From positions 12,785 to 76,784 of IMG/VR virus record IMGVR_UViG_3300016467_000502: a stretch of 64,000 nt of DNA; one strand, written 5' to 3'. The translations under genes and the position numbers were made by a program. The notes beneath the pieces were generated by a model. It saw only the letters and a program-made list of their open reading frames with translations. It did not search any database and was not told the DNA's origin. Within the stretch, counting starts at the first letter, position 1; each line of letters begins with the position of its first letter. The DNA is from a virus (lineage: Duplodnaviria; Heunggongvirae; Uroviricota; Caudoviricetes). This document shows, in pieces, positions 1,010-64,000 of the stretch.

Positions 1010-3211
1010 TTAACGTAAGTTCCTGAACGGATTTCTGGGTTTTTTCATAAGTGAAGAACTGCCATTGGTTTGACCCATATGGCGAAAGGGGCTCTTATAT
1101 AATGTACTGAATTTGGAGGAGTTCTCCAAATTGGTCTGCTCACGTTCGACACGTTTGCTATAACCTCTATTTGACTCCTGCACCTTAGCAAAAGCAACGA
1201 GTGCACAGAATGCTACAAGCCTGTCGACGTTGAGCCCTTTGCGGTAGGCTTGCATCTCTTTCAGCAGCATAGGATCAGGGATTCTTTCTACTCCGTATAT
1301 AGACTTTACAATGTTTCCATGTTCATCAGTCTCATTGTCCAGCTCTTCTTCCATAAACTGTACAGCGTAGCTTAGCAGATTTCCTCGGAAGATGTTACCA
1401 ACGTTGCGCCATCCGTATTCTTGAAACACGTTGGTGTTACTCATCAGTTCTTTTAAAAACAGGATTTGGTTTTTAGGTACCAGGTATTTCTGCTTGCGCT
1501 TGGAAATCATGTACTGGATGAATAGGGAGATGTTGTTTTCTACTACTGTCCACGCATTGTACCACTCAATCATTAGCTCAAGGCGCTCATGGGTTTTATT
1601 GAGGTCGTCAAAACGACCGCACCAGCTTGCCACAATTTTGTCACGCTCAATGATCTGCTCAATACTGCCGTCTTTCTTATGACGGGTAATTTCCTGAGAA
1701 GTCTTGTAGATGAAGATGGAGCATAGCGACTCAGAGGTCGTCGTCTTACCTTCTGCCACGGGGTCAACGCTGGCATAGTACATACCAAACTGGGCATCCT
1801 TGATGGGGCGCTCATATACGCAAATAACCCCTTCCTTATTCTGAGTCTTAGGTGTAATGGGAAATTCCAGGATTGGAAGCTTCTTACTTTCCTGTGCCTG
1901 GATTTTACCGTGCTCATCGCGGTGCAGGTTTACGTACTCGGTAAAATACGTCTTGTCTTCAATGCGTCTGAGCTGCTGGGTAACCAGGTGAAGCGGAAAT
2001 ACTGAGTCTTCACGGGATGCAAATGCCTCTGAGATGTACATGGGCTTCTGAGAAACCCTCAGCTGATACTCATCCGGGCGTAGTTTCTTTTTCCAGTCCT
2101 CGCGTTCTGACAGGATCATGGTCATAGCCTCCTCTACTTTAGAGTTCCCGTACTGGTCAATGCAGGGTATCATACTCCACTGCTCTGGAATAAACAGTCC
2201 ACATTCCCCAATCTGTCCGTTCTCATCCATGAGGTTGGTTTCAACAGCTAGCACATCCTTGGAATCAGGATTTAAAATCATGTCCTTTAGCGGTTCACAC
2301 TGCTCCAGGTCACCGACAGATCCTGCTACCACAAACTGACCGGTGTAGATCATACCCGATTTCATGGCAGGAAGCAGGTACTCCAGGGTCTTACCCATGT
2401 GCGGAGCGATACCAGCCTCCTCGTGGAAGAACAGTGTACAGGGACCACCGACACCATTGGTAGGGTCTTTCTCCAGCACCAGGCCTATCAGAACGCTTTT
2501 CAGACCTACGTCACGTTTACGACCACCCTGGTTGATCTCAATCTTCTGTTCCCAGTTAAGCACCTTGTCAGGATTGCTGGGACGGTACCACGCGGTGTGG
2601 GTGTTCAGGAAGTTTCGGTATTCCTCCAGAAAACGCCAGGTACCTTTCTCTGCAATGTAGTCTTTTAGAGAGCCTGCCATCTTGTTGATGGCCCCCTCTT
2701 CAAACCAGTACAGATTGATCATCTTGGCGGCATGAAAGTATGACGAGGCAATCTGACGTTTCTTCAGGATTGCCGCGTGTTTGTAGTATTGCTTGGCTAG
2801 CTCCTCATATAACGCCATGTGGTACTGCGCGTCTCGTACATCAGGAAAGGTGAACTTACCTACCTCTTTGTTGTAAATAGGCAGGAAGTTCAGCCACATG
2901 TAGTAATCGCGCGGTAAATACCATGTCTTGTCACCATTCTTAAAGATGACACCGTTGCGACACTTGTCTTTTTCTGTGTCCCAGTAGTGTACAAAGTCTT
3001 TACTTTTAGGCGGTGCAGGGCAGTAGAACTTATCACGGTTAAACCTGCGGGCCTGCTCATTAAACTTCTGAGACGTTTCATCAAACCCATACTGGCCAGG
3101 TTCCTTGAACATCTCGTGTAAAAACGCACGAAATGTTTCACGTGTCACAAATTCCGTGTGGCTCCACTCACCAGTGGCATTATCATAGGTTGGGATTCTT
3201 ATGTACGTCAT
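1010..3211 (-). CDS. terL: terminase large subunit (ATPase + RNaseH-like nuclease domains)
   Basis: 733 aa. C-terminal nuclease-like motif YASVDPVAEGKTTTSESLCSIFIY (DP.a.G...D pattern of TerL nucleases); size and position next to a portal-like gene. Walker A is not canonical. Confidence 0.6.
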   Translation of the reverse strand: MTYIRIPTYDNATGEWSHTEFVTRETFRAFLHEMFKEPGQYGFDETSQKFNEQARRFNRDKFYCPAPPKSKDFVHYWDTEKDKCRNGVIFKNGDKTWYLPRDYYMWLNFLPIYNKEVGKFTFPDVRDAQYHMALYEELAKQYYKHAAILKKRQIASSYFHAAKMINLYWFEEGAINKMAGSLKDYIAEKGTWRFLEEYRNFLNTHTAWYRPSNPDKVLNWEQKIEINQGGRKRDVGLKSVLIGLVLEKDPTNGVGGPCTLFFHEEAGIAPHMGKTLEYLLPAMKSGMIYTGQFVVAGSVGDLEQCEPLKDMILNPDSKDVLAVETNLMDENGQIGECGLFIPEQWSMIPCIDQYGNSKVEEAMTMILSEREDWKKKLRPDEYQLRVSQKPMYISEAFASREDSVFPLHLVTQQLRRIEDKTYFTEYVNLHRDEHGKIQAQESKKLPILEFPITPKTQNKEGVICVYERPIKDAQFGMYYASVDPVAEGKTTTSESLCSIFIYKTSQEITRHKKDGSIEQIIERDKIVASWCGRFDDLNKTHERLELMIEWYNAWTVVENNISLFIQYMISKRKQKYLVPKNQILFLKELMSNTNVFQEYGWRNVGNIFRGNLLSYAVQFMEEELDNETDEHGNIVKSIYGVERIPDPMLLKEMQAYRKGLNVDRLVAFCALVAFAKVQESNRGYSKRVEREQTNLENSSKFSTLYKSPFRHMGQTNGSSSLMKKPRNPFRNLR

Positions 3212-4331: not shown

Positions 4332-4512
4332 AGGTTATGTTCTTTCTTACGCGCAGTTCCTTGTGAGTGAACTGCCACATCTCTCCTGTTTTATCAATAA
4401 TGACCGTATAGACGGTATCTGTTTCATGTCCGTAGTCTGTGACCAGCCATACAGTACCTTTGCCCCTCGGTGTGTTTACCTCTAGGCGGTTGTGTGGTTC
4501 GTAAATCATCAT
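4306..4512 (-). CDS. small hypothetical protein
   Basis: 68 aa. Its start overlaps the stop of the upstream gene in an ATGA arrangement at 4509-4512 (translational coupling). Confidence 0.4.
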   Translation of the reverse strand: MMIYEPHNRLEVNTPRGKGTVWLVTDYGHETDTVYTVIIDKTGEMWQFTHKELRVRKNITFGRHGKTI

Positions 4513-5225
4513 AGCAGCGTAACTTGTATTTGTTCATCTCTATCCACCAATACGTAATACAATTCAATGTCGCTGCTCCACTCCAAACCTGTCCAGAATT
4601 CAAAGCCTTTAAACCCTGCCTTGTATCGGCAACATTTCTCATAACCTCCCAGCAGGTACACGTGCGTGCATCCTAGCGCTGCAGCTAGCTCACACTCGTG
4701 CATCTGTGCGATGTTACCCAGTGACAACTTGGGGTGTTCATAGTTCCAGATAAACTGCATGGCCAAAAACTGGTCTTCGTAAATCTTATAAAAGCTCACG
4801 CCTACTAGTTTATCATCATGCCAGTACTCAATGCAACTACATCCTTCAAAGAATTCCCACTGGATATCCCTGGCAAAGTCATGGTAATTGCAATACTGCT
4901 CGTAAAGCTGCATGTAATCCGCCTGATTCAGTGTCAAATCACCCGGCTGGGTGCGCACCTTGCGGCTTAGTTTTCTGACAGTTTCTGTCGGGCGGTATTG
5001 TGCAACTTCTAAGCGGACGCTGCGCACATTATACCAGTCAGAGCCCCAGGGAATCCAGCCTTCTTTTAGTGCGTCCGCTCCAGACTCTCCCGGCTCCAAT
5101 ACCCCATAAGGCGCTGAGTAGATAAAGTCCAAGTCAGAAACCTTACCAAATCCTTCTATATGGTCAAAGTGTATTTTCACTTTTTCTTCTTCTTTTGCAG
5201 GGCGGCTGCATTGTCTTTGTACCAA
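4509..5225 (-). CDS. aminoacyl-tRNA--protein transferase-like protein (ATE_C domain; Bpt/ATE1 family of N-end-rule transferases)
   Basis: C-terminal motif HVYLLGGYEKCCRYKAGFKGFEFWTGLEW matches the ATE_C signature YLGY..C.KM.YK..F.P.E..W. Upstream LYEQYCNYH and LVGVSFYKIYEDQFLAMQFIWNYEH also fit. About 240 aa, as for bacterial Bpt. Confidence 0.55.
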   Translation of the reverse strand: MVQRQCSRPAKEEEKVKIHFDHIEGFGKVSDLDFIYSAPYGVLEPGESGADALKEGWIPWGSDWYNVRSVRLEVAQYRPTETVRKLSRKVRTQPGDLTLNQADYMQLYEQYCNYHDFARDIQWEFFEGCSCIEYWHDDKLVGVSFYKIYEDQFLAMQFIWNYEHPKLSLGNIAQMHECELAAALGCTHVYLLGGYEKCCRYKAGFKGFEFWTGLEWSSDIELYYVLVDRDEQIQVTLL

Positions 5226-6025
5226 CTCATGATAGATAAGACCTCATCTTTAAGATAAGGCAACTGGTAAGGAATCACCTCTTTTACAATGGGTTCTCCG
5301 TTGCTGTCAAGCTTACTAATAGGGTATCCAAACTCATCCTTCTCATCTTCCTCTTCAAACAAGATGTGATGTATGCGCAAGGACCCAGGCTTAAGGTTAG
5401 GGTTATGCTTCAGTATCATAAACATGTAGATACTTAACTGAAGATTGTAATGGTTCAGGTTGCAATCATCCAGGTGAGACACAGGGAAGTTCATCTTCTG
5501 GGAGATACCCTCCCAGTTCTTGAACGATTCTGCCTTGATTTCTTTGTTGGTTTTGTAGTCGGTAATGTGTACCATACCATTGGCAACCTCCACCAAATCA
5601 CTCTGTCCGCAGATGCCAGCAGAGCGCAGGTATACCATGTGTTCAGGATAGATTCCTTCAATCAGTTTCTGAGAAGGTGCGACCTTCTTACCATGCTCAT
5701 CAAACATGGGGCGGATTACCGGCAGTTCCCTGTCGTGACGTGTCAGGGTAACACAGCCGGTAATATCCTGCTCCCGCTGGTCATGGTACCAATTCCCCAG
5801 GTTGCAGGCGCGTTCTGATTCACGCTTCCATGCGGCCTGGATCTGTTCAACAGTCATACCATACCATTTCCCCTTTTTGTTGGCGGCACTTTTCTTCGCT
5901 ACTGTGTCGCTGTCAAAGGGTTGTTTTAGATGTCCGATCAGCGTGGTGACGCTGGTCCAGACAGTACTATCGCTGGTATCAATGCTCTTATACGAGTGGG
6001 TTGAGGGTTCAAATACTAACGCCAT
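5177..6025 (-). CDS. PD-(D/E)XK nuclease (Cas4/RecB/lambda-Exo-like)
   Basis: Motifs GQSDLVEV ... HITDYKTNK (D-x(n)-D/E-x-K) and QLSIYM (QxxxY). Confidence 0.6.
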   Translation of the reverse strand: MALVFEPSTHSYKSIDTSDSTVWTSVTTLIGHLKQPFDSDTVAKKSAANKKGKWYGMTVEQIQAAWKRESERACNLGNWYHDQREQDITGCVTLTRHDRELPVIRPMFDEHGKKVAPSQKLIEGIYPEHMVYLRSAGICGQSDLVEVANGMVHITDYKTNKEIKAESFKNWEGISQKMNFPVSHLDDCNLNHYNLQLSIYMFMILKHNPNLKPGSLRIHHILFEEEDEKDEFGYPISKLDSNGEPIVKEVIPYQLPYLKDEVLSIMSWYKDNAAALQKKKKK

Positions 6026-7246: not shown

Positions 7247-7327
7247 TTGTGCAGGAGGGACTCGAACCCCCACGCCTCACGGACCAGATTTACAGTCTGG
7301 CGAGCCAACCAGTTGCTCAACTGCACA
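7247..7327 (-). tRNA. tRNA-Tyr (anticodon GTA), class II
   Basis: Reverse complement folds as acceptor tgtgcag/ctgcaca, D arm gagc/gctc, anticodon arm ccaga-ctGTAaa-tctgg, long variable arm, T loop ttcgagt; 81 nt. Confidence 0.8.
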
Positions 7328-7335
7328 ATGGATTC

Positions 7336-7785
7336 TTAATCTAACAGCACCCAGTCTTCAGCCAGGATATCTGTTTGAGATGCTAACCAAGGCACGTAGT
7401 CTGAATATCCAGCACCCCAATAATGAGAATCACCAGCAGTTTTCATTACAATATGAGGAAGCATTTGTCCTGCCTTACCTTGTGTTTGTCCTTCTACTTC
7501 TGAATCAACAGCAGCCGAGTTTAAATGTCCGTTAACTGGGTATCCTTGAACTAAAGTCAAATACATTCCTTTACCATTCCATCCTTGACGGCATACTTTT
7601 TTACCATCTTTCATAGCTTCAATAGCCTGGCCAAACGTCAACCCCGCGTTGATCTTTGTTACACTGTATTTCTGACTTAGCGTTTGCATAAATTGTTCAA
7701 CGTCTGACGGAAACGTTACAACCGCATTGTCCCACTGCTTTTGCCAGTCTCTGACTTCAGCAATAAGCTCTAGTAAATTTTTCAT
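7336..7785 (-). CDS. DUF2829-domain protein (Tad2-like; candidate Thoeris anti-defence cyclic-nucleotide sponge)
   Basis: GKKVCRQGWNGKGMYL and C-terminal WLASQTDILAEDWVLLD match the DUF2829/Tad2 hallmark segments as recalled. About 47 aa of N-terminal extension. Confidence 0.55.
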   Translation of the reverse strand: MKNLLELIAEVRDWQKQWDNAVVTFPSDVEQFMQTLSQKYSVTKINAGLTFGQAIEAMKDGKKVCRQGWNGKGMYLTLVQGYPVNGHLNSAAVDSEVEGQTQGKAGQMLPHIVMKTAGDSHYWGAGYSDYVPWLASQTDILAEDWVLLD

Positions 7786-8048
7786 TTCTTTAACCCCTTG
7801 GCAATGCCCTTTACTGCATACATCTGCGCGGTTTCTAAATGTTCCATAGCAATGTCAAAGCATCTTTTCTGTTCAAGATGTGCTTCGATATCAACAATTG
7901 TAGAATTGATTTTCTCATTGTTGCAGTAGTCAATGGCATCTGCCATCATACGTTTGAATGTTCCAATCTTGTCATCCGAAGATGGATTGAAATTGATGTG
8001 ACATCTGGACTCCCCCAGTGTCAATGTTTTCATGTCTGTGTTTTCCAT
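7782..8048 (-). CDS. hypothetical protein
   Basis: 88 aa ORF overlapping its neighbour by 4 nt. Confidence 0.5.
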   Translation of the reverse strand: MENTDMKTLTLGESRCHINFNPSSDDKIGTFKRMMADAIDYCNNEKINSTIVDIEAHLEQKRCFDIAMEHLETAQMYAVKGIAKGLKK

Positions 8049-8241: not shown

Positions 8242-8580
8242 TTAGTCTTTCTCATAGATGCGCTCCATTAACAGCTGTACAAGCAGTCCTACCATTTCTT
8301 CTGACTCCACCTCACGTTGTCGCAGGATGTCAAATGCGGCAAGAACAACTACTCTGGAAATCATGGCCAGCTCTCGCTTACCGTTGATCACCAGCAAATT
8401 CTTCACGCCGTGTTTTGTGTTCCACTGTCTGAAGGCTACAGGTAATCCTGTTAACTCTTTAGCAGCGCTTTCAGCTTCTTCCTTGCTCAGGAAGAAATCG
8501 ATTTCTGAAGTAATGTTTACTTCATTCTCCAACAGCAACACGTCCTGTTGCAGAAGGTCTAGGGTAATTATTTTTTTCAT
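8242..8580 (-). CDS. hypothetical protein
   Basis: 112 aa ORF. Confidence 0.5.
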   Translation of the reverse strand: MKKIITLDLLQQDVLLLENEVNITSEIDFFLSKEEAESAAKELTGLPVAFRQWNTKHGVKNLLVINGKRELAMISRVVVLAAFDILRQREVESEEMVGLLVQLLMERIYEKD

Positions 8581-8599: not shown

Positions 8600-8673
8600 T
8601 AGCGGGGAGTGGATTCGAACCACTGACCTCCAGGTTATGAGCCTAGCGAGCTGACCATCTGCTCTACCCCGCC
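8600..8673 (-). tRNA. tRNA-Met (anticodon CAT; elongator type, or Ile2 if lysidinylated)
   Basis: Reverse complement folds as acceptor ggcgggg/ccccgct, D gagc/gctc, anticodon arm ctagg-ctCATaa-cctgg, T arm agtgg-ttcgaat-ccact; 74 nt. Confidence 0.8.
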
Positions 8674-9512: not shown

Positions 9513-9536
9513 TACAAATATACTTCAAAAGTTTAA

Positions 9537-9580
9537 CCTCTACAAATTTATGCGTATTTTTGTAGAGAGAGGTCTACATT
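9537..9580. promoter_or_regulatory. divergent promoter/operator region with TCTACAAA / TTTGTAGA inverted pair plus a third GTCTACA
   Basis: TCTACAAAT (9539) ... TATTTTTGTAGAG (9555-9567) ... GGTCTACA. TATTTTTG fits the Bacteroidetes -7 box TAnnTTTG. Confidence 0.45.
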
Positions 9581-12698: not shown

Positions 12699-12840
12699 TC
12701 TTGCCAGCGCTAGCTACCTCTAATCAGTTAGTATCACCCCTAACAGTTCTTTCCAGGCACCAATCAGCACTAGTATTTATTACGTAAAAACATCTACTAA
12801 AGTGATGTTTAATACGTAAAAACATGTATATTATAAGTGT

Positions 12841-13353
12841 ATGGAACACAGAAATATACCAATTGAAGGTCTTGAGAACTATCAAGTTACTGAAGACGGG
12901 CAGGTTTACAACACCAAAACCAAGCGCTACAGAAAGCATTTCATCAATCCTGGAGGCTATGCGGTGGTCAATATCATGATCAAAGCCAAGAGCAGAACCT
13001 TTCAGGTTCACCGTTTGGTTGCTGCTGCTTTCTGCAAGAATGACGGCTATCCTGTTGTAAATCACATAGATGGCGACAAGTTGAACAATCACTACACCAA
13101 CCTTGAGTGGTGTTCACACGCACATAACCGACTGCACTCTGCAAGAGTTCTGGGAAACACAGACAGTAAACACTTGTTTCAACCAGGTAATGCTAGCAGG
13201 TCCAGACCATGTCGCATTGTAAAAGGCCCAAAACCAGGTGATTATCCTTCTTTCAAAGCTGCTGCAGATGCTAATGGAACTACAAGCTCTTACCTTTCCA
13301 CCATTGTCAGACGCAACATTAACTCATCAGTCTTCATTGTAGAAAGACTCTGA
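12841..13353 (+). CDS. HNH homing endonuclease (HNH_3/AP2-like)
   Basis: VVNHIDGDKLNNHYTNLEWCSHAHNRLH is a classic HNH_3 motif. Confidence 0.7.
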   Translation: MEHRNIPIEGLENYQVTEDGQVYNTKTKRYRKHFINPGGYAVVNIMIKAKSRTFQVHRLVAAAFCKNDGYPVVNHIDGDKLNNHYTNLEWCSHAHNRLHSARVLGNTDSKHLFQPGNASRSRPCRIVKGPKPGDYPSFKAAADANGTTSSYLSTIVRRNINSSVFIVERL

Positions 13354-23386: not shown

Positions 23387-24253
23387 ATGAACATTGTACA
23401 GACCTTAACCCGTAAGAGCATGGTCATCAGACCAAGCGGTAGAAGTACTGACTATATCAGCCCGTCGTTTGGCTATGGCTGTTTGTACAACTGTACATAC
23501 TGCTACATGAAACGACACAAGCCAGAAGGATTGGACATTGCCACCAACACAGCAGAAATCCTGACCGCCATTGACCACCACTCGTGGTTTGCAGATGCAG
23601 AGAAACCCAACCAGACGCATGAGCAGTACATCACGTATGATATCTCTTGCAATGAGGACTTTGCATTGCATGCCAAACAACACGAGTGGCAAAAGATCTT
23701 TGGCTTTTTCAAAGATCACCCCCGTGCTATGGCATCGCTTGCTACCAAGTATGTGAACCCTGCACTGCTGACGTTTGATCCAAAACAGAAAGTCAGGGTG
23801 CGTTTCAGCCTGATGCCTATAGAATATTCTCTTATGCTTGAGCCCAACACCAGCAACATATGGCATAGAATCTATGCTATCAATGATTTCATTGAGGCAG
23901 GGTATGATGTGCACATCAACTTCTCACCTGTGATTGTAGCTAAAGATTGGTTAGATAAATACAGGCTTCTTTTTGCGATGGTGGATACAGTGGTGAAACC
24001 AGAGTATAAGGACCGTGTGAAAGCAGAGGTGATCTTCATGACGCACAATGAGCAGAAGCACAAGTACAATCTGAAGCACAACTTGCCTGGAGAAGACCTG
24101 TTATGGGTTCCTCAAGTACAAGAGTCCAAGGTCTCCCAATACGGAGGCACCAACATCCGCTACAAGCACGACGTCAAAGCAGAGTACATCAAACAATGGA
24201 CTGCTGTGCATGATGAAGTGATACCGTGGAACACAATACGTTACATCTTTTAA
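23387..24253 (+). CDS. radical SAM enzyme, spore-photoproduct-lyase/COG1533-like
   Basis: GCLYNCTYCY gives a CxxxCxxC cluster followed by Y, as in SPL-family radical SAM proteins. Confidence 0.55.
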   Translation: MNIVQTLTRKSMVIRPSGRSTDYISPSFGYGCLYNCTYCYMKRHKPEGLDIATNTAEILTAIDHHSWFADAEKPNQTHEQYITYDISCNEDFALHAKQHEWQKIFGFFKDHPRAMASLATKYVNPALLTFDPKQKVRVRFSLMPIEYSLMLEPNTSNIWHRIYAINDFIEAGYDVHINFSPVIVAKDWLDKYRLLFAMVDTVVKPEYKDRVKAEVIFMTHNEQKHKYNLKHNLPGEDLLWVPQVQESKVSQYGGTNIRYKHDVKAEYIKQWTAVHDEVIPWNTIRYIF

Positions 24254-32413: not shown

Positions 32414-32485
32414 GCGTCCATAGTGCAACGGTAGCATGACGGTCTCCAAAACCGTTGGTCCTGGTTCGAATCCAGGTGGGCGTGC
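32414..32485 (+). tRNA. tRNA-Trp (anticodon CCA)
   Basis: Acceptor gcgtcca/tgggcgt, D stem gtgc/gcat, anticodon arm acggt-ctCCAaa-accgt, T arm cctgg-ttcgaat-ccagg. Confidence 0.75.
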
Positions 32486-33355
32486 AACAACGTTCTTTGA
32501 CATATACTCTTTCATGTACAATAGTACCAAACAAACCTCCGCGTGTGCTGACACAGAGATCAGATGTGAGGGAGCGGTTCCCACAGTTCAATGTACTCTT
32601 TATCCAGTAAGCGCTATATCCGCTGAACCATCATTGAGTGCCTTCCCAGCCGCAGGGTAGAACAAGCAGGAGATTGATCAGGGAAATGTAACATGAAAGA
32701 TGAGATTAAGGAGTGAGTTAAAAGACCAACAAGAGGAAAATGATCACCCAGATGGTACCGAGTAGGTGTATCTGTAGTACTCTTAACGCGATTGAAGCAA
32801 CACCTCCTCAGGTTTATACATGGTTGACAACAATAGTCCGAGCTATCTTCAAGCGGGTGTGATTAACCCGTGGCTCCGCGTGAATACTAAATCATAGAGA
32901 TCACAGACTAGAACAAGGCGCACCGCTTGAAGAGCGGTTTAATACAACTAAACAAACGCCAAGTTCCGTTGTCATCCATGTACAGGCTACGCAGTACAGA
33001 TAGCAGGCCGGGTAGCTCCCGGTCGCCCCAGTTGAACAAAAGTCCAGGTAAGATGCGCATAATCCTGGTGCGCTATAGTACTGGGTTCTGTACTGCATCC
33101 ACACAGTCAGGCTGCGAGTAATCAGCAGTAAGGAGGCAAGATAATGAGCATATAAAAGGATTGCCTAAGGTATAAGCGGTTGCGCGGAAGCATAAGTTTC
33201 ACCGTTATAGCCTTTCCCGTGAGTGCTCTGCGTAGGGTTGCGCCCTACCCTGACTGCTAAGTGTTGTTCCCTTGAGAAAGGAATAGATAAAGGAGGATAA
33301 GCTGCTTTCAAAAGCATTGTATCTCACAACACAGAGGACTTCTCATCCTCAACAT

Positions 33356-33437
33356 AGTCAGGTGACTGAATTGGTTAAGGTTGCCTCCCGCTGATGACGG
33401 GATAGAGTATATACAGGTTCGAATCCTGTCCTGACTA
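33356..33437 (+). tRNA. tRNA-like unit A (Ile-like anticodon arm GAT; noncanonical 3-nt insertion before anticodon stem and 10-nt variable region)
   Basis: Acceptor agtcagg/cctgact, D act-gaattggttaa-ggt, anticodon arm tcccg-ctGATga-cggga, T arm acagg-ttcgaat-cctgt; 82 nt. Confidence 0.45.
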
Positions 33438-33491
33438 CCGTAGGTTTATTTGAGAGTAAAGACCTATTCAAAAATCTTAATAACTCTTGTT

Positions 33492-33564
33492 AGTCAGGTG
33501 GCGGAATTGGCAGACGCACTGGGAATAAAATCCTTGGGTACAGGTTCGAATCCTGTCCTGACTA
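33492..33564 (+). tRNA. tRNA-like unit B (Leu-type D arm, anticodon TAA position but A33 and 3-bp anticodon stem, no long variable arm; likely degenerate)
   Basis: Same acceptor and T arm as unit A; D arm gcg-gaattggcaga-cgc; loop aaTAAaa. Confidence 0.35.
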
Positions 33565-33685
33565 CAACAGCTCTTAACGTAAGAGAACGAAACATAGATT
33601 TGGCATCCCATAAGAACTGCTCGCTCAAAATCTCTAAATCGTTAGTTAGCAATGTTTGTGACTCATTAATGTAAAAGTCACACAT

Positions 33686-33793
33686 AGTCAGAGAAGCATG
33701 ATTAGGTTATATGCCCCACCTGGGTTGAAGGCTGGTAACTTCATTAAACAGATGCCGCATGGGAGATAGCAGGTTCGAATCCTGTCCTGACTA
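33686..33793 (+). ncRNA. tRNA-like unit C (108 nt; extra hairpin and an 8-nt anticodon-like loop gctGGTaa; not a canonical tRNA)
   Basis: Acceptor agtcaga/cctgact (6 of 7 bp), D-like gcat-gattaggttat-atgc, stem tgaag/cttca, identical 3' half. Confidence 0.3.
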
Positions 33794-33875
33794 CAAACTT
33801 ATGTTTGCATACAGAGTAATCTGTCGTCAAAGTCCTGAGCATATTGACGTTAAAGACTTTAAACTGCTTAAACAT

Positions 33876-33957
33876 AGTCAGGTGGCGGAATGGCAGACGC
33901 TGATGTAGATGAAGCATGGTAAGTTCATCCTTACAGGTTCGAATCCTGTCCTGACTA
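33876..33957 (+). tRNA. tRNA-like unit D (Leu-type D arm; anticodon loop agatgaa lacks U33; noncanonical)
   Basis: Acceptor agtcagg/cctgact, D arm gcg-gaatggcaga-cgc, class II length of 82 nt, identical 3' half. Confidence 0.35.
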
Positions 33958-34085
33958 CGAATGTGGTTCAACTCCACTCGTTGACTGAGGTTATGGTAAG
34001 TAGGTGTGCCAAGGTTCGAGCCCTTGGGTCTGGTGACAGATGATGGTAGACACGAACAGTCTGACTGCAGGGAAAGACCTGTCAG

Positions 34086-34168
34086 GCCCAAGTGGTGGAA
34101 TTGGTAGACACACACGTCTCAGAAGCGTGTATCCAAAAGATGTGCAGGTTCGAGTCCTGTCCTGGGCA
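34086..34168 (+). tRNA. tRNA-Leu (anticodon CAG), class II
   Basis: Acceptor gcccaag/cctgggc, D arm gtg-gaattggtaga-cac, anticodon arm cacgt-ctCAGaa-gcgtg, 14-nt variable arm, T arm gcagg-ttcgagt-cctgt. Confidence 0.8.
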
Positions 34169-34170
34169 CT

Positions 34171-60712: not shown

Positions 60713-62907
60713 CGCTTTATCACTTCAAAAAAGGTTAATATAAACACGTCAGGTGTAGTAATGCCAAACAATGAGAATAAGAAGTATTGATCAACAGTCC
60801 AGTCAATAGCTACATTCCTACCATCAAAGGTATTTCCAGCATCATCACTTGCAACGTTTGTATTTGTTGCAAATAATTCAGTATTTGTTGTTGTGTTTTT
60901 AATGACACCATGTCCATAGTATTGAGTCCATCTTGTTGTTGTTCCTATTATGGAAGATTTCCATACAGTAGCTCCAGTTAAGTTATTTGCTGTATTTACA
61001 TGAATGTGAGATTGGGCAGATGTACCATTAGCATTTCTTCTAAACCTTACCCTTACCTGAATAGTATCTCCTGCTGCGAATGTATTTGCAGGTATGAGTA
61101 CAGACGCTAAAGCCTGAGTACCAGTACCTACGGATGTATAATCGCTAACGCTTTTTGCTACGATTGTTGTACCAATAGTTGTATTTGGGATAGTCTGCGT
61201 ACTCAGAAGTCCGGCAGCATCAGCAACTACCATTCTAGATCCAGAACCTGCAAGTGAAGATACTGTTACGCTACCAGTTCCTCCTGCAATACGTACGCGA
61301 TCAACAAGTGTTTGCACTGTTGATCCTGTTACGCCAGTGTTAGATGTTCTGAGAATAATATCTCCAGGTGTACCGGTACCTGTTCCTCGTCCTCCTGCAA
61401 TTGTAAAATGTGCACCTCCTATGTCTGTTCCAAAACCTGAGGGTGCGTGCATGATGATATCCACAAGTCTGCCTCCAGCATCTGCTGTAAAAGGCATTTG
61501 ACCAAAGTAAAAATCTTTAATTGTAGAGCTTGTGTTATATCCGCCACCTATAAAAGCGTGAACAGTGCTTGGAATTGTGCTAGCGTCGTTTAGTCTATAG
61601 CCGCTACCTGCAACAATGTGTATGCTGTTAGATAAAGATGTTGGAAGGTTATTGGCATCGGTACTTGAAACCATGACGTTTCTTGTCCCAGTAGAAATTC
61701 CAACGCCTGCTCCAGAACCTATAAAAACATTTGAAGCTCCTGTCGTCAAATTACCTCCAGCGTTTCTTCCAAAAAGGCTGTTATTGATTCCGCTTAAAGT
61801 ACTGTAACTTGCAACAGGCGACACAATTGTATTTCTTGTTGCAGAAATTGACAAGGACATGCTGGATCCGCCAATAAATATGGAACCGTCATTTGACATT
61901 CCTTTTATCACAGCACCTGTAGATCCTGTCTGACCTAAATAAAGTGTGCTGACACGACCTGCACCGTTTACATCAAGAGCATAACCGGCATCAACACTTG
62001 TGTTGACAAACACCTGTTTTGCAATAATCTTGTAAACACCTAAATCAACATCTGAAGTAGCACCGTTGTATGGAACGTAACCTGCATCCGCATGGTTACC
62101 CCATCCATATGCAAGAAACCATTTGTCAATATCTGCTTGAAGTATGCTAAACGCAGGACTGCTGCTAAATATAGGATCTTGTTCTGTGAAACTTGTGAGA
62201 TAACCAACTTGCGAATGATCTCCCCATCCGTATGCAGTATTCCAGTTTGTCAAGTCTGTTGAAAGAATGCCTGCTGCAACACTTGCAGAATAGACTGGAT
62301 CTGTTTCTGTGTAGCTTGTGAGAAACCCTGCGTTCTCTAAATTAAAAACGCGGGTATCCAAACCTGTTGTTACACCGTATAGATTTGCGATATCCAACTG
62401 TGCAGCCGCAACGGCACTTTCAAGAACTGTTATACTTCCTTGAATATTAATGACGTCTGCTAAAACCAAATCAACAGTTGTCTGAAGCGCATTAACACTT
62501 CCTTGCAAGCTTGTAATGTCTCCTTGGATGTCAATGATTACTTGACAGTTTAACAGTTCTGTACAGTCAATGCCTCCGCTACCTGTTGTCTGAATGACAA
62601 GTTCACCTCCTACATATTGGGCGGTACCCGTCACGTCTCCTACTAACTTCAATGTGCTTAAGCTGCGCTGGATTTTTTCCATTGCGCTAAGTACAGTATC
62701 AGAAGCGGTTACAGGATTTGCATAACGATTTACTTCAGTAAATCCGTCAAGCGGTCGCTGTAGCACAAGGTCTGTTTCTATAACTCCGTCGCTCTTTACC
62801 CACCAACCTAACTTGATGTAGGTCAATACAAATCCTGGATCCGCACTGCTTGTAGGAATCCCCTGATAATCAGGTAGTTCAAAGGGTACAAGAAACTTTG
62901 ATGGCAT
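60709..62907 (-). CDS. tail fibre protein with internal sequence repeats
   Basis: 732 aa. Repeated TETDPVYSAS...WNTAYGWGDHSQVGYLTSFTEQDPIFSSS...WFLAYGWGNHADAGY units; G/S/T-rich. Confidence 0.6.
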   Translation of the reverse strand: MPSKFLVPFELPDYQGIPTSSADPGFVLTYIKLGWWVKSDGVIETDLVLQRPLDGFTEVNRYANPVTASDTVLSAMEKIQRSLSTLKLVGDVTGTAQYVGGELVIQTTGSGGIDCTELLNCQVIIDIQGDITSLQGSVNALQTTVDLVLADVINIQGSITVLESAVAAAQLDIANLYGVTTGLDTRVFNLENAGFLTSYTETDPVYSASVAAGILSTDLTNWNTAYGWGDHSQVGYLTSFTEQDPIFSSSPAFSILQADIDKWFLAYGWGNHADAGYVPYNGATSDVDLGVYKIIAKQVFVNTSVDAGYALDVNGAGRVSTLYLGQTGSTGAVIKGMSNDGSIFIGGSSMSLSISATRNTIVSPVASYSTLSGINNSLFGRNAGGNLTTGASNVFIGSGAGVGISTGTRNVMVSSTDANNLPTSLSNSIHIVAGSGYRLNDASTIPSTVHAFIGGGYNTSSTIKDFYFGQMPFTADAGGRLVDIIMHAPSGFGTDIGGAHFTIAGGRGTGTGTPGDIILRTSNTGVTGSTVQTLVDRVRIAGGTGSVTVSSLAGSGSRMVVADAAGLLSTQTIPNTTIGTTIVAKSVSDYTSVGTGTQALASVLIPANTFAAGDTIQVRVRFRRNANGTSAQSHIHVNTANNLTGATVWKSSIIGTTTRWTQYYGHGVIKNTTTNTELFATNTNVASDDAGNTFDGRNVAIDWTVDQYFLFSLFGITTPDVFILTFFEVIKR

Positions 62908-62957
62908 AGTTCATAGAGAGGAGCATTTTGCTCCTCTCTATATAATATACTCAATTC

Positions 62958-64000
62958 TTACTGATTTTTCTTCATCTGTTGCACTCTGTTTTGAGGATCA
63001 AATAAGTCGCGGAAGTTGCGAATACCAGTCAAATCTTCAATGTCTTTAACAATCTTAGCATCACCCTCTTCAAAGCGCCCTGCCTTACGAGTGTAGAACG
63101 CTTCTTTCCAGATGCTGTAGGCCAAATCTCCATCGTATTCAGGATCTGGTTCTTCCCCGCCGTTGTACATCATGGCCATGATATAGTTCAATCCGTGTGA
63201 TCCAAAACGCTTGATGGCATTAAGTTCTCGTGTGTAGACTGTCAGCGTTGTAAAGTTGCGGATGTATTCCTCAGAACCTCCACCCACCGGGAACATGGAG
63301 GTGGTCTCTCCTTTCACACCCCAAATAATGCGGAGTATGTTACCTTCTAGCATGCTCAACTCTTCATCCTCATCATCTTTTCCGCGCAGGTAAGACATTG
63401 CCATCATTGACAGCATGGTAGTTATGGCCATCATAAATACATCACGACGTGCTTGGTTAATCTTTTTGGAGTACAAATCTCCTTGACGTTGCACCATCTG
63501 ACCTGTAGACTTATCCATAACATCAATAAGGTCCATAGTTCCACCAAACTTCCTTGCAGTCTTGCTTCCTAGCACCAATGCTTTGAGAGTGTTGGCAGGA
63601 CCATAATATTGCCATGCCATGGACACTGCTCTCCAGTATCCCAGTGCCACCTCTCCTGCTTCCCAGTTAGGTCTAAGATAACCAAAGCGGTTAAGTACTT
63701 GAGGTGCAAGGTACTTACGGTAGAAAAACATCAGTTTTCCCAACACTGTTTGTTCAAACTTAGTAGAATCAGAAGCCGCGTAGTTACCCTGTGCACGACG
63801 AATCTCTGAGTAGATAATGTTTCTCAGACGGTTCTCGTCATCTTCAGAGTACTCAATCATTGGATTACGCACCAGCATACCCGTACTGTCGCGGTAATAT
63901 GCTTCATGCGCAGGTACCAATACATCATTGCCGTCAGTGTCTTTCTTGTATACCGGCTGACCATTGGCGTCATACTTTTCAATCTGCTTGAACTTGTACT
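62958..64000 (-). CDS. hypothetical structural protein, 5'-truncated by window edge
   Basis: The table start at 63920 is a TTG; the same frame stays open upstream to position 64000 (YKFKQIEKYDANGQPVYKKDTDGNDVLVPAHE...), so the gene begins beyond the window. Confidence 0.5.
   Translation of the reverse strand, partial: YKFKQIEKYDANGQPVYKKDTDGNDVLVPAHEAYYRDSTGMLVRNPMIEYSEDDENRLRNIIYSEIRRAQGNYAASDSTKFEQTVLGKLMFFYRKYLAPQVLNRFGYLRPNWEAGEVALGYWRAVSMAWQYYGPANTLKALVLGSKTARKFGGTMDLIDVMDKSTGQMVQRQGDLYSKKINQARRDVFMMAITTMLSMMAMSYLRGKDDEDEELSMLEGNILRIIWGVKGETTSMFPVGGGSEEYIRNFTTLTVYTRELNAIKRFGSHGLNYIMAMMYNGGEEPDPEYDGDLAYSIWKEAFYTRKAGRFEEGDAKIVKDIEDLTGIRNFRDLFDPQNRVQQMKKNQ

Follow-up and report, generated by a model that had tools for sequence, protein, structure and literature searches.

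What is the function of a 149-amino-acid (aa) protein encoded by an uncultured tailed phage, read on the minus strand from an ATG start at position 7785 to position 7336, and upon which host immune signal is it likely to act? The question arises within a window of 64,000 nucleotides (nt), the whole stretch of DNA analysed here, which corresponds to positions 12,785 to 76,784 of the IMG/VR virus record IMGVR_UViG_3300016467_000502. The best overall explanation, and one that is very probably correct, is that the protein is a Tad2-family sponge, most likely directed against Thoeris defence, which forms part of a two-gene anti-signalling cassette. Two aspects of the locus go beyond routine annotation, namely that the gene occupies an anti-Thoeris slot behind a conserved hairpin anchor and that its insertion domain has been cleanly swapped, both of them overlooked in the first-pass annotation. 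The gene, its parts and its upstream partner are laid out as follows.

7336..7785, minus strand: the Tad2-like gene, composed of head, Tad2 core and insertion domain (PF11195; PDB sequence matches; AlphaFold2 model with a mean predicted local distance difference test score, pLDDT, of 82; Foldseek matches to Tad2 structures only).
7645..7785, minus strand: the head, residues 1-47, with two predicted helices (4-19 and 27-39, pLDDT 56-67), probably flexible.
7564..7644, minus strand: the N-terminal part of the core, residues 48-74, with helix alpha1, GWNGKGM and the pocket residues W69, N70 and G71; aligned to HgmTad2, SptTad2 and ModTad2, with nucleotides near-identical to those of a sister phage, L001.
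7393..7563, minus strand: the insertion-domain cassette, residues 75-131, of the 'GYPVNGHLN...GDSHYWGAGYSDYV' type.
7336..7392, minus strand: the C-terminal part of the core, residues 132-149 and the stop, PWLASQTDILAEDW, with the pocket residues W133, L134, S136, T138 and D139; its last 18 codons share 100% nucleotide identity with L001.
7782..8048, minus strand: the upstream partner, 88 aa, of the Acb2/Tad1-hairpin family, whose stop overlaps the start of the Tad2-like gene by 4 nt (ATGA).

The first-pass annotation had called the product a Tad2-like DUF2829 protein on the strength of two motifs, and both are indeed present (GKKVCRQGWNGKGMYL, residues 61-76, and WLASQTDILAEDWVLLD, residues 133-149). 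The profile check that it had proposed returned a match to PF11195, 'Tad2-like' (DUF2829), of 85.1 bits (expectation value E=5e-24; residues 50-147 against profile positions 2-72 of 73), which is far above the Pfam gathering cut-off of 25 bits, and PHROG 1048 and PHROG 872 both match at E ~1e-25. In the PDB, seven distinct solved Tad2/AcrIIA7 sequences are matched with E values from 2e-13 to 1e-9, these being SptTad2 (8wjd), ModTad2 (9eib, 8v3e), HgmTad2/AcrIIA7 (8kbi and others), pdAcrIIA7 (9kzr) and SPO1 Tad2 (8sme, 8wje). All of these alignments begin at query residue 47-50, from which it follows that the N-terminal extension of about 47 aa, also claimed at the outset, is real. The gene is a genuine new Tad2 homologue, an ordinary member of its family and one among thousands. 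The reference collection contains no close phage. An independent assembly (L002) carries the 713-nt pair formed by the hairpin and Tad2-like genes in identical form, and an assembly artefact is thereby ruled out.

The predicted structure tells the same story. An AlphaFold2 monomer model built on 65 homologues places the core, residues 47-149, at pLDDT 85-96, with a helix at residues 51-59 followed by strands, giving an N-terminal helix and an antiparallel sheet. The fold comparison suggested earlier gave a positive result: the top 24 Foldseek matches in the PDB are all Tad2 (8wjd, 9eib, 8kbi, 8v3e, 8wje, 8sm*; E 2e-7 to 1.5e-4) and, apart from Tad2 structures, nothing is matched at E<1, the next match lying at E>1. 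Helix alpha1, which forms one of the interfaces in SPO1 Tad2, is conserved (FGQAIEAMK versus FGQALESLK).

Which ligand could such a fold hold? In HgmTad2 one pocket holds 1''-2' and 1''-3' glycocyclic ADP-ribose (gcADPR; PMC10680739), with contacts made by W21, N22, G23, M76, A78, V84, W87, L88, S90, T92 and D93 (Li et al., PMC10680739). These align here with W69, N70, G71, M114, T116, V131, W133, L134, S136, T138 and D139, such that 11 of the 11 positions are kept, ten of them identical and the other a conservative change of A78 to T; across the 65 homologues the residues of this pocket are mostly invariant or nearly so. A second pocket of HgmTad2 holds the cyclic dinucleotides cGG and cGAMP through R31, S47, F70 and N85 (PMC10680739). 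SptTad2 keeps all four of these residues, whereas here they become V79, V93, M108 and P132, so that none of the four is kept, with the alignment being uncertain within the insertion and the R31 and N85 positions lying in its well-aligned flanks. Judged from the aligned residues, then, the ADP-ribose (ADPR) pocket is intact and the HgmTad2-type cyclic-dinucleotide pocket is not. This combination supports an anti-Thoeris role and not one against the cyclic-oligonucleotide-based antiphage signalling system (CBASS). The original claim had embraced both: its anti-Thoeris half stands, on the retained gcADPR pocket and on the genomic slot described below, while its anti-CBASS half finds no support in this protein, in which all four cyclic-dinucleotide contacts are replaced.

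The insertion domain nevertheless gives some substance to a different view, in which the protein chiefly sequesters cyclic (oligo)nucleotides, either CBASS cyclic dinucleotides or the cyclic uridine and cytidine monophosphates (cUMP/cCMP) of Pycsar, bound in a second pocket formed by the insertion, with the ADPR pocket being secondary. The segment that runs from GWNGKGM to WLASQTD spans 58 residues, against 60 in HgmTad2, 54 in SptTad2 and 42 in ModTad2, which places it in the long-insertion class (between beta2 and beta5), and at this same interface HgmTad2 binds cyclic dinucleotides, and MoTad2 cUMP, in a second pocket. Furthermore, the insertion is strongly conserved in a large subfamily and is swapped as a unit, which suggests a selectable function. 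Yet every one of the HgmTad2/SptTad2 contacts is replaced, the canonical ADPR pocket remains complete, and the slot neighbours found in relatives belong to anti-Thoeris rather than anti-CBASS families, all of which makes a primary role in binding cyclic nucleotides rather unlikely. A sponge acting on a Thoeris-type signal remains the preferred explanation.

The evidence that the insertion moves as a unit comes from comparison with the sister phage L001, an 80-kb contig that carries the same two overlapping genes. DNA identity between the two is 94% from 9564 to 7563, is lost between 7563 and 7392, and is then 82%. The codon alignment shows nearly the same nucleotides throughout codons 1-74 and full (100%) identity in codons 132-149, whereas codons 75-131 are unrelated (~30% nucleotide identity). 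These same 57 codons are ~88% nucleotide-identical to the 102-aa Tad2 gene of another contig, L003, the flanks of which match at only 50-60%. Because the break in identity is confined to codons 75-131, and because these have their match in L003, the insertion behaves as an exchangeable module, with breakpoints where the conserved motifs GWNGKGM and PWLASQTD are encoded. In a third syntenic relative, L141, the head and the overlap with the hairpin gene are accompanied by yet another insertion type. Three syntenic sisters (the window with L002, L001 and L141) hold three unrelated cassettes within an otherwise conserved head-plus-core gene. The GYPVNGHLN / GDSxYWGxGYSDY signature of the cassette found here recurs in most of the 120 closest homologues; this subfamily is abundant and, to the extent that it could be checked, has neither a solved structure nor an assigned second ligand. 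The 102-aa Tad2 genes of L003 (6001-6309) and of L004-L006 are headless, encode proteins ~80% identical to the window core and adjoin PcfJ (PF14284) and DUF1281_C, a context that looks conjugative or plasmid-type and not phage-like.

What, then, of the head? It is coding, to judge from a start codon that overlaps (ATGA) the stop of the preceding gene and from the comparison with L001, which yields five synonymous differences and one non-synonymous in its first 50 codons. The head is conserved in P0001, P0003 and P0112, the last of which keeps both helices with a 42-aa loop inserted between them. Extensions of 39-103 aa, of several kinds, are found at the N-terminus of 26 of the 120 closest homologues. 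No Pfam family matches the head, including Acb4 (PF13876) and Sequestin (PF21825), and the idea that it represents a truncated Sequestin or Acb4 module therefore finds no support in the Pfam search. Similarly, a head-only phmmer search of 1.84 billion representative proteins gave three matches that are apparently spurious (short repeated stretches in proteins of 537-1684 aa), and a head-only word-indexed search gave no candidates. Several leads were discarded: a head-only match in the PDB is a leucine-rich-repeat artefact, a full-length match in a Cellvibrio metagenome-assembled genome (L044) crosses a stop codon and is consequently not a head homologue, and an Acb4 identity for the 'GYKVVYEDGY.SWSPK' N-terminal modules of some homologues was dropped when Pfam did not confirm it.

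The closest parallel for the head is found in pdAcrIIA7 of Phocaeicola dorei (PDB 9KZR), where 48 extra N-terminal residues form a flexible two-helix 'head domain' (PMC13133391), a precedent that the first-pass annotation had not taken into account. The two heads agree in length, position and predicted two-helix structure. Moreover, gp52 of the Phocaeicola phage PV4-TP1, a close relative of pdAcrIIA7, starts MKTLDEKAAEY...FPEL, compared to MKNLLELIAEV...FPSD here, such that both share an MK.L.E..AE start and an FP motif. The likeness is marginal in statistical terms, with 9 of 5000 shuffles reaching the global score and no phmmer match to 9kzr, and there are differences in that the pdAcrIIA7 head is much more acidic (isoelectric point, pI, 4.1 versus 5.0 here) and in that the insertion domains are not the same. 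Full-length pdAcrIIA7 is a tetramer that binds cGG and 2' cyclic ADP-ribose (2'cADPR) but loses single guide RNA (sgRNA) binding and Cas9 inhibition (PMC13133391).

This parallel also bears on the suggestion that the protein could be an AcrIIA7-type anti-CRISPR, in which a tetramer binds trans-activating CRISPR RNA (tracrRNA) in a basic groove and so blocks assembly of the Cas9 ribonucleoprotein. The protein does belong to the same domain family as AcrIIA7, the headless form of which was reported to bind tracrRNA in a 2026 study (PMC13133391). However, a head is present here, and head-bearing full-length pdAcrIIA7 neither inhibited Cas9 nor shifted sgRNA (PMC13133391). The core is acidic, with a pI of 5.15 and a net charge of -4, as against a pI of 8.9 for the HgmTad2 core, and a basic counterpart exists for just two (K59 and K72) of the five groove residues K58, K66, K71, K93 and R101, with K66 corresponding to Q67 and the other two lying in the non-homologous insertion. 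An anti-CRISPR function is consequently most improbable, and the argument returns to nucleotide-signal binding by a Tad2 sponge.

Further insight comes from the gene immediately upstream, which the first-pass annotation had passed over. Its 88-aa product matches PF24729 at 34.2 bits (E=3e-8, residues 27-84; gathering cut-off 27 bits), and among the 120 matches listed the PF24729 label is attached to nearly all of its homologues, the family being highly conserved. AlphaFold2 predicts two long antiparallel helices (residues 27-48 and 54-86), with the best model at pLDDT 80.5 and the other four at 55-62. Structure searches, in which similarity to a solved Acb2 or Tad1 was sought, do not set this model apart from generic hairpins. 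Resemblance to Vs.4 of phage T4 is slight: hhalign gives P=0.0098 (probability 4.2%), and 56 of 3000 shuffles reach the global score. A by-eye alignment whose local score is non-significant sets F20-N-P-S-S-D-D-K-I-G here against Y8-K-P-H-T-E-E-K-I-G of T4, and in that alignment the position of the cyclic-dinucleotide-pocket lysine (Y11/K26 in PaMx33; Y8/K23 in T4) is taken by M35, while K32 and R33 precede it by one helical turn. Given the generic structure matches and the weak similarity to Vs.4, the 88-aa protein is assigned to its Pfam family only. The ATGA overlap that joins the two genes recurs in L001, L002 and L141.

What usually follows the hairpin gene? A survey covered 46 IMG/VR loci carrying homologues of this gene, in which the next gene was clustered and counts were taken from the 34 loci with close homologues. 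The gene that comes after the hairpin homologue (L087-L120) often overlaps its stop, and in 18 of the 34 loci this slot is filled by a known anti-Thoeris family, distributed as below.

Tad2-like: 6 of 34 loci.
Lockin: 7 of 34 loci (PDB 9p8l, E=6.5e-28).
RyR-domain / RyDEP (PF02026): 3 of 34 loci.
Sequestin (PF21825): 2 of 34 loci.

Tad2, Lockin, Sequestin and RyR/RyDEP are all experimentally validated anti-Thoeris families (PMC12265669, PMC13232231), and the fact that the window gene shares its slot with them provides strong contextual support for its acting on a Thoeris-type signal. In the window itself, no Lockin, Sequestin or RyR family member was found. The remaining slots are occupied by, among others, a 107-aa family (L098, L099), a 115-aa protein with a weak PF24729 match (L100), DUF4494 (L103), a 187-200-aa family (L107, L109, L110) and a 206-aa protein (L108). 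Their position makes the uncharacterised slot genes candidates, by association, for new anti-signalling proteins.

Two other window genes have relatives in the vicinity of this slot. The first is a 112-aa gene upstream of the pair (8242-8580, minus strand), which has a close homologue (E=5e-51) at 1479-1820 of L092, where it lies downstream of the hairpin gene and before a long Tad2-like open reading frame (ORF); as it is upstream in one and downstream in the other, gene order in the accessory block has been shuffled between relatives. The second is a 288-aa ORF (23387-24253, plus strand) that is closely homologous to a spore-photoproduct-lyase-like radical S-adenosylmethionine protein (PF20903; phmmer E=2e-112), the latter being located at 2011-2895 in L093 and L094, ~300 nt downstream of the hairpin gene.

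The same set of observations allows a more pessimistic view to be weighed, which is that the gene is a decayed or non-defence relic that has kept a Tad2-like fold and lost the binding of immune signals. Such inactivity has a precedent: of 84 sponge homologues assayed against seven defence systems, 19 showed no inhibition of any (PMC12393519). Against this, the pocket residues are intact, the head shows purifying selection in its five synonymous differences to one, an independent sample contains the gene pair with 100% identity, and three related phages preserve the translational coupling. There is accordingly only a very slim chance that the gene is a relic, and the functional sponge remains the favoured interpretation.

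How might such a sponge work? The protein would assemble as a homotetramer, as do solved Tad2 proteins, with pockets between the protomers. These pockets would bind with high affinity an ADP-ribose-derived signal made by a TIR (Toll/interleukin-1 receptor) protein, most likely 3'cADPR or 2'cADPR. Once the signal is sequestered, the Thoeris effector would never be switched on and the phage would escape abortive infection. By analogy with pdAcrIIA7, the 47-aa head would be a flexible appendage that is compatible with both tetramer formation and ligand binding. The 57-residue insertion may act as an exchangeable module, which in other Tad2 proteins forms a second pocket and which here would not constitute a cyclic-dinucleotide site of the HgmTad2 type. 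As a two-gene cassette, this protein and the hairpin protein encoded upstream probably deal with more than one immune signal.

A number of points weigh against this scheme. Tad2 homologues with similar cores vary in specificity, with 3'cADPR, histidine-ADPR (His-ADPR), N7-cADPR, cUMP/cCMP and cyclic dinucleotides all represented (PMC12393519), and the exact ligand proposed here is predicted on the basis of 11 residues. No solved Tad2 has the insertion domain seen here, and the head is modelled at low confidence. In the assays of sponge homologues cited above, which covered the Acb2, Tad1 and Tad2 families, about a quarter of the proteins inhibited none of the systems (PMC12393519). Finally, the presence of Thoeris in the host of this phage is presumed.

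Taken together, the slot and the swap permit a broader proposal. The insertion would be a specificity cassette that is moved by recombination at its GWNGKGM/PWLASQTD flanks between phages and mobile elements; the GYPVNGHLN...GDSxYWGxGYSDY cassette may form a second pocket for a signal so far assigned to no Tad2; and the uncharacterised genes of the post-Acb2 slot (the 107-aa, 115-aa and 187-200-aa families and DUF4494) would be new anti-signalling proteins. As a joint reading this is speculative, and on balance doubtful. The locus nonetheless marks a compact anti-signalling region, in which the uncharacterised slot genes are cheap and well-motivated candidates for sponges or signal-degrading enzymes, and the occurrence of the same head and core with three insertions represents a natural experiment on whether Tad2 proteins owe their second-ligand specificity to the insertion.

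The wider surroundings contain the following features.

7247..7327, minus strand: tRNA-Tyr (GTA), 8 nt downstream of the Tad2-like stop (ARAGORN; Rfam RF00005, 52.8 bits).
8600..8673, minus strand: tRNA-Met (CAT), located upstream of the gene pair and belonging to the same minus-strand run (ARAGORN; Rfam, 65.9 bits).
9515..9546, minus strand: Bacteroidota-type promoter-like motif TTTG-N20-TAtaTTTG, a consensus match only and the possible start of a transcription unit that includes the pair.
1010-3211, minus strand: large terminase, whose identity to the terminases of crAss-like phages (hosts Bacteroides, Flavobacterium, Cellulophaga and Azobacteroides) is only 25-27%.

The first-pass annotation had assigned the gene to an early block, a placement that is not established, as the same minus-strand run also holds the large terminase and the sole hint in its favour is the promoter-like motif at 9515-9546. 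The Bacteroidota-type pattern occurs seven times in the window compared to 2.1 expected. Between 6500 and 10600 there are only two minus-strand TAnnTTTG (-7) motifs, both at 9515-9550, and only the one at 9515-9546 has an upstream TTTG. A sigma-70 promoter scan was at chance level, with 8 found and 7.1 expected. The window appears to represent a distant, uncultured crAss-like lineage, and the host of the phage probably lies in the Bacteroidota. Attempts to infer the host from genomes gave nothing in a first scan and, in a second, only relatives of no more than 49% identity across many phyla.

A 238-aa protein (4509-5225, minus strand), encoded in the minus-strand run that includes the tRNA genes listed above, matches ATE_C, the C-terminus of arginine-tRNA-protein transferase (41 bits), and Acetyltransf_6 (FemAB-like GNAT); a phage aminoacyl-tRNA-dependent transferase would be unusual. 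Elsewhere, ARAGORN calls five clustered tRNAs at 32414-34169 (plus strand), of which Rfam confirms four, the exception being His-ATG; the cluster includes unusual A34 anticodons (Phe-AAA, 33492-33565; His-ATG, 33876-33958) and 84-nt genes for Ile-GAT and Leu-CAG. A 170-aa homing-endonuclease-like ORF with HNH_3 and NUMOD4 (12841-13353, plus strand) lies near the switch between the minus- and plus-strand blocks.

How does the locus compare with systems that are already known? The nearest relatives of defined structure are HgmTad2 / meAcrIIA7 (8KBI-8KBM, 8WJC) and SptTad2 (8WJD), which share with the window protein the PF11195 domain, the fold and the GWNGKGM and WLASQTD motifs, and which come from phages or elements of Bacteroidota, the group to which the host here probably belongs as well. 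They differ in that the insertion sequence is distinct in the window protein, which has an extra GDSHYWGAGYSDY segment, in that its core is acidic where theirs is basic, in its 47-aa head, and in the loss of the cyclic-dinucleotide residues. SPO1 Tad2 (8SME/8SMF/8SMG) and ModTad2 (9EIB, 8V3E) have the same fold, with target-normalised Foldseek template-modelling scores (TM-scores) of 0.63-0.84, and the N-terminal helix and WNG are shared, but both are short-insertion forms of 85-90 aa. ModTad2 also has WTPSVSD in place of WLASQTD, and binds His-ADPR together with cUMP in a second pocket.

The pairing of the two genes likewise has counterparts. The Acb4-Tad2 and Sequestin-Tad2 fusions (PMC12265669) follow the same logic, whereby a Tad2 module combined with a second sponge covers several signals, although in the window the modules are separate, overlapping genes. 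In T4, vs.4 (Acb2, 88 aa) and vs.3 (a TadIV-1 sponge) are adjacent, on the same strand and overlapping, like the pair described here (PMC13243611), with vs.4 at 63078-63344 and vs.3 at 62800-63078 (5079-5345 and 4801-5079 in L135) sharing one nucleotide. The downstream TadIV-1 is a dimer of another family, and Vs.4 is only distantly related to the 88-aa protein of the window, but the T4 pair nevertheless provides a precedent, in a cultured phage, for an Acb2 gene that is coupled to an anti-Thoeris sponge.

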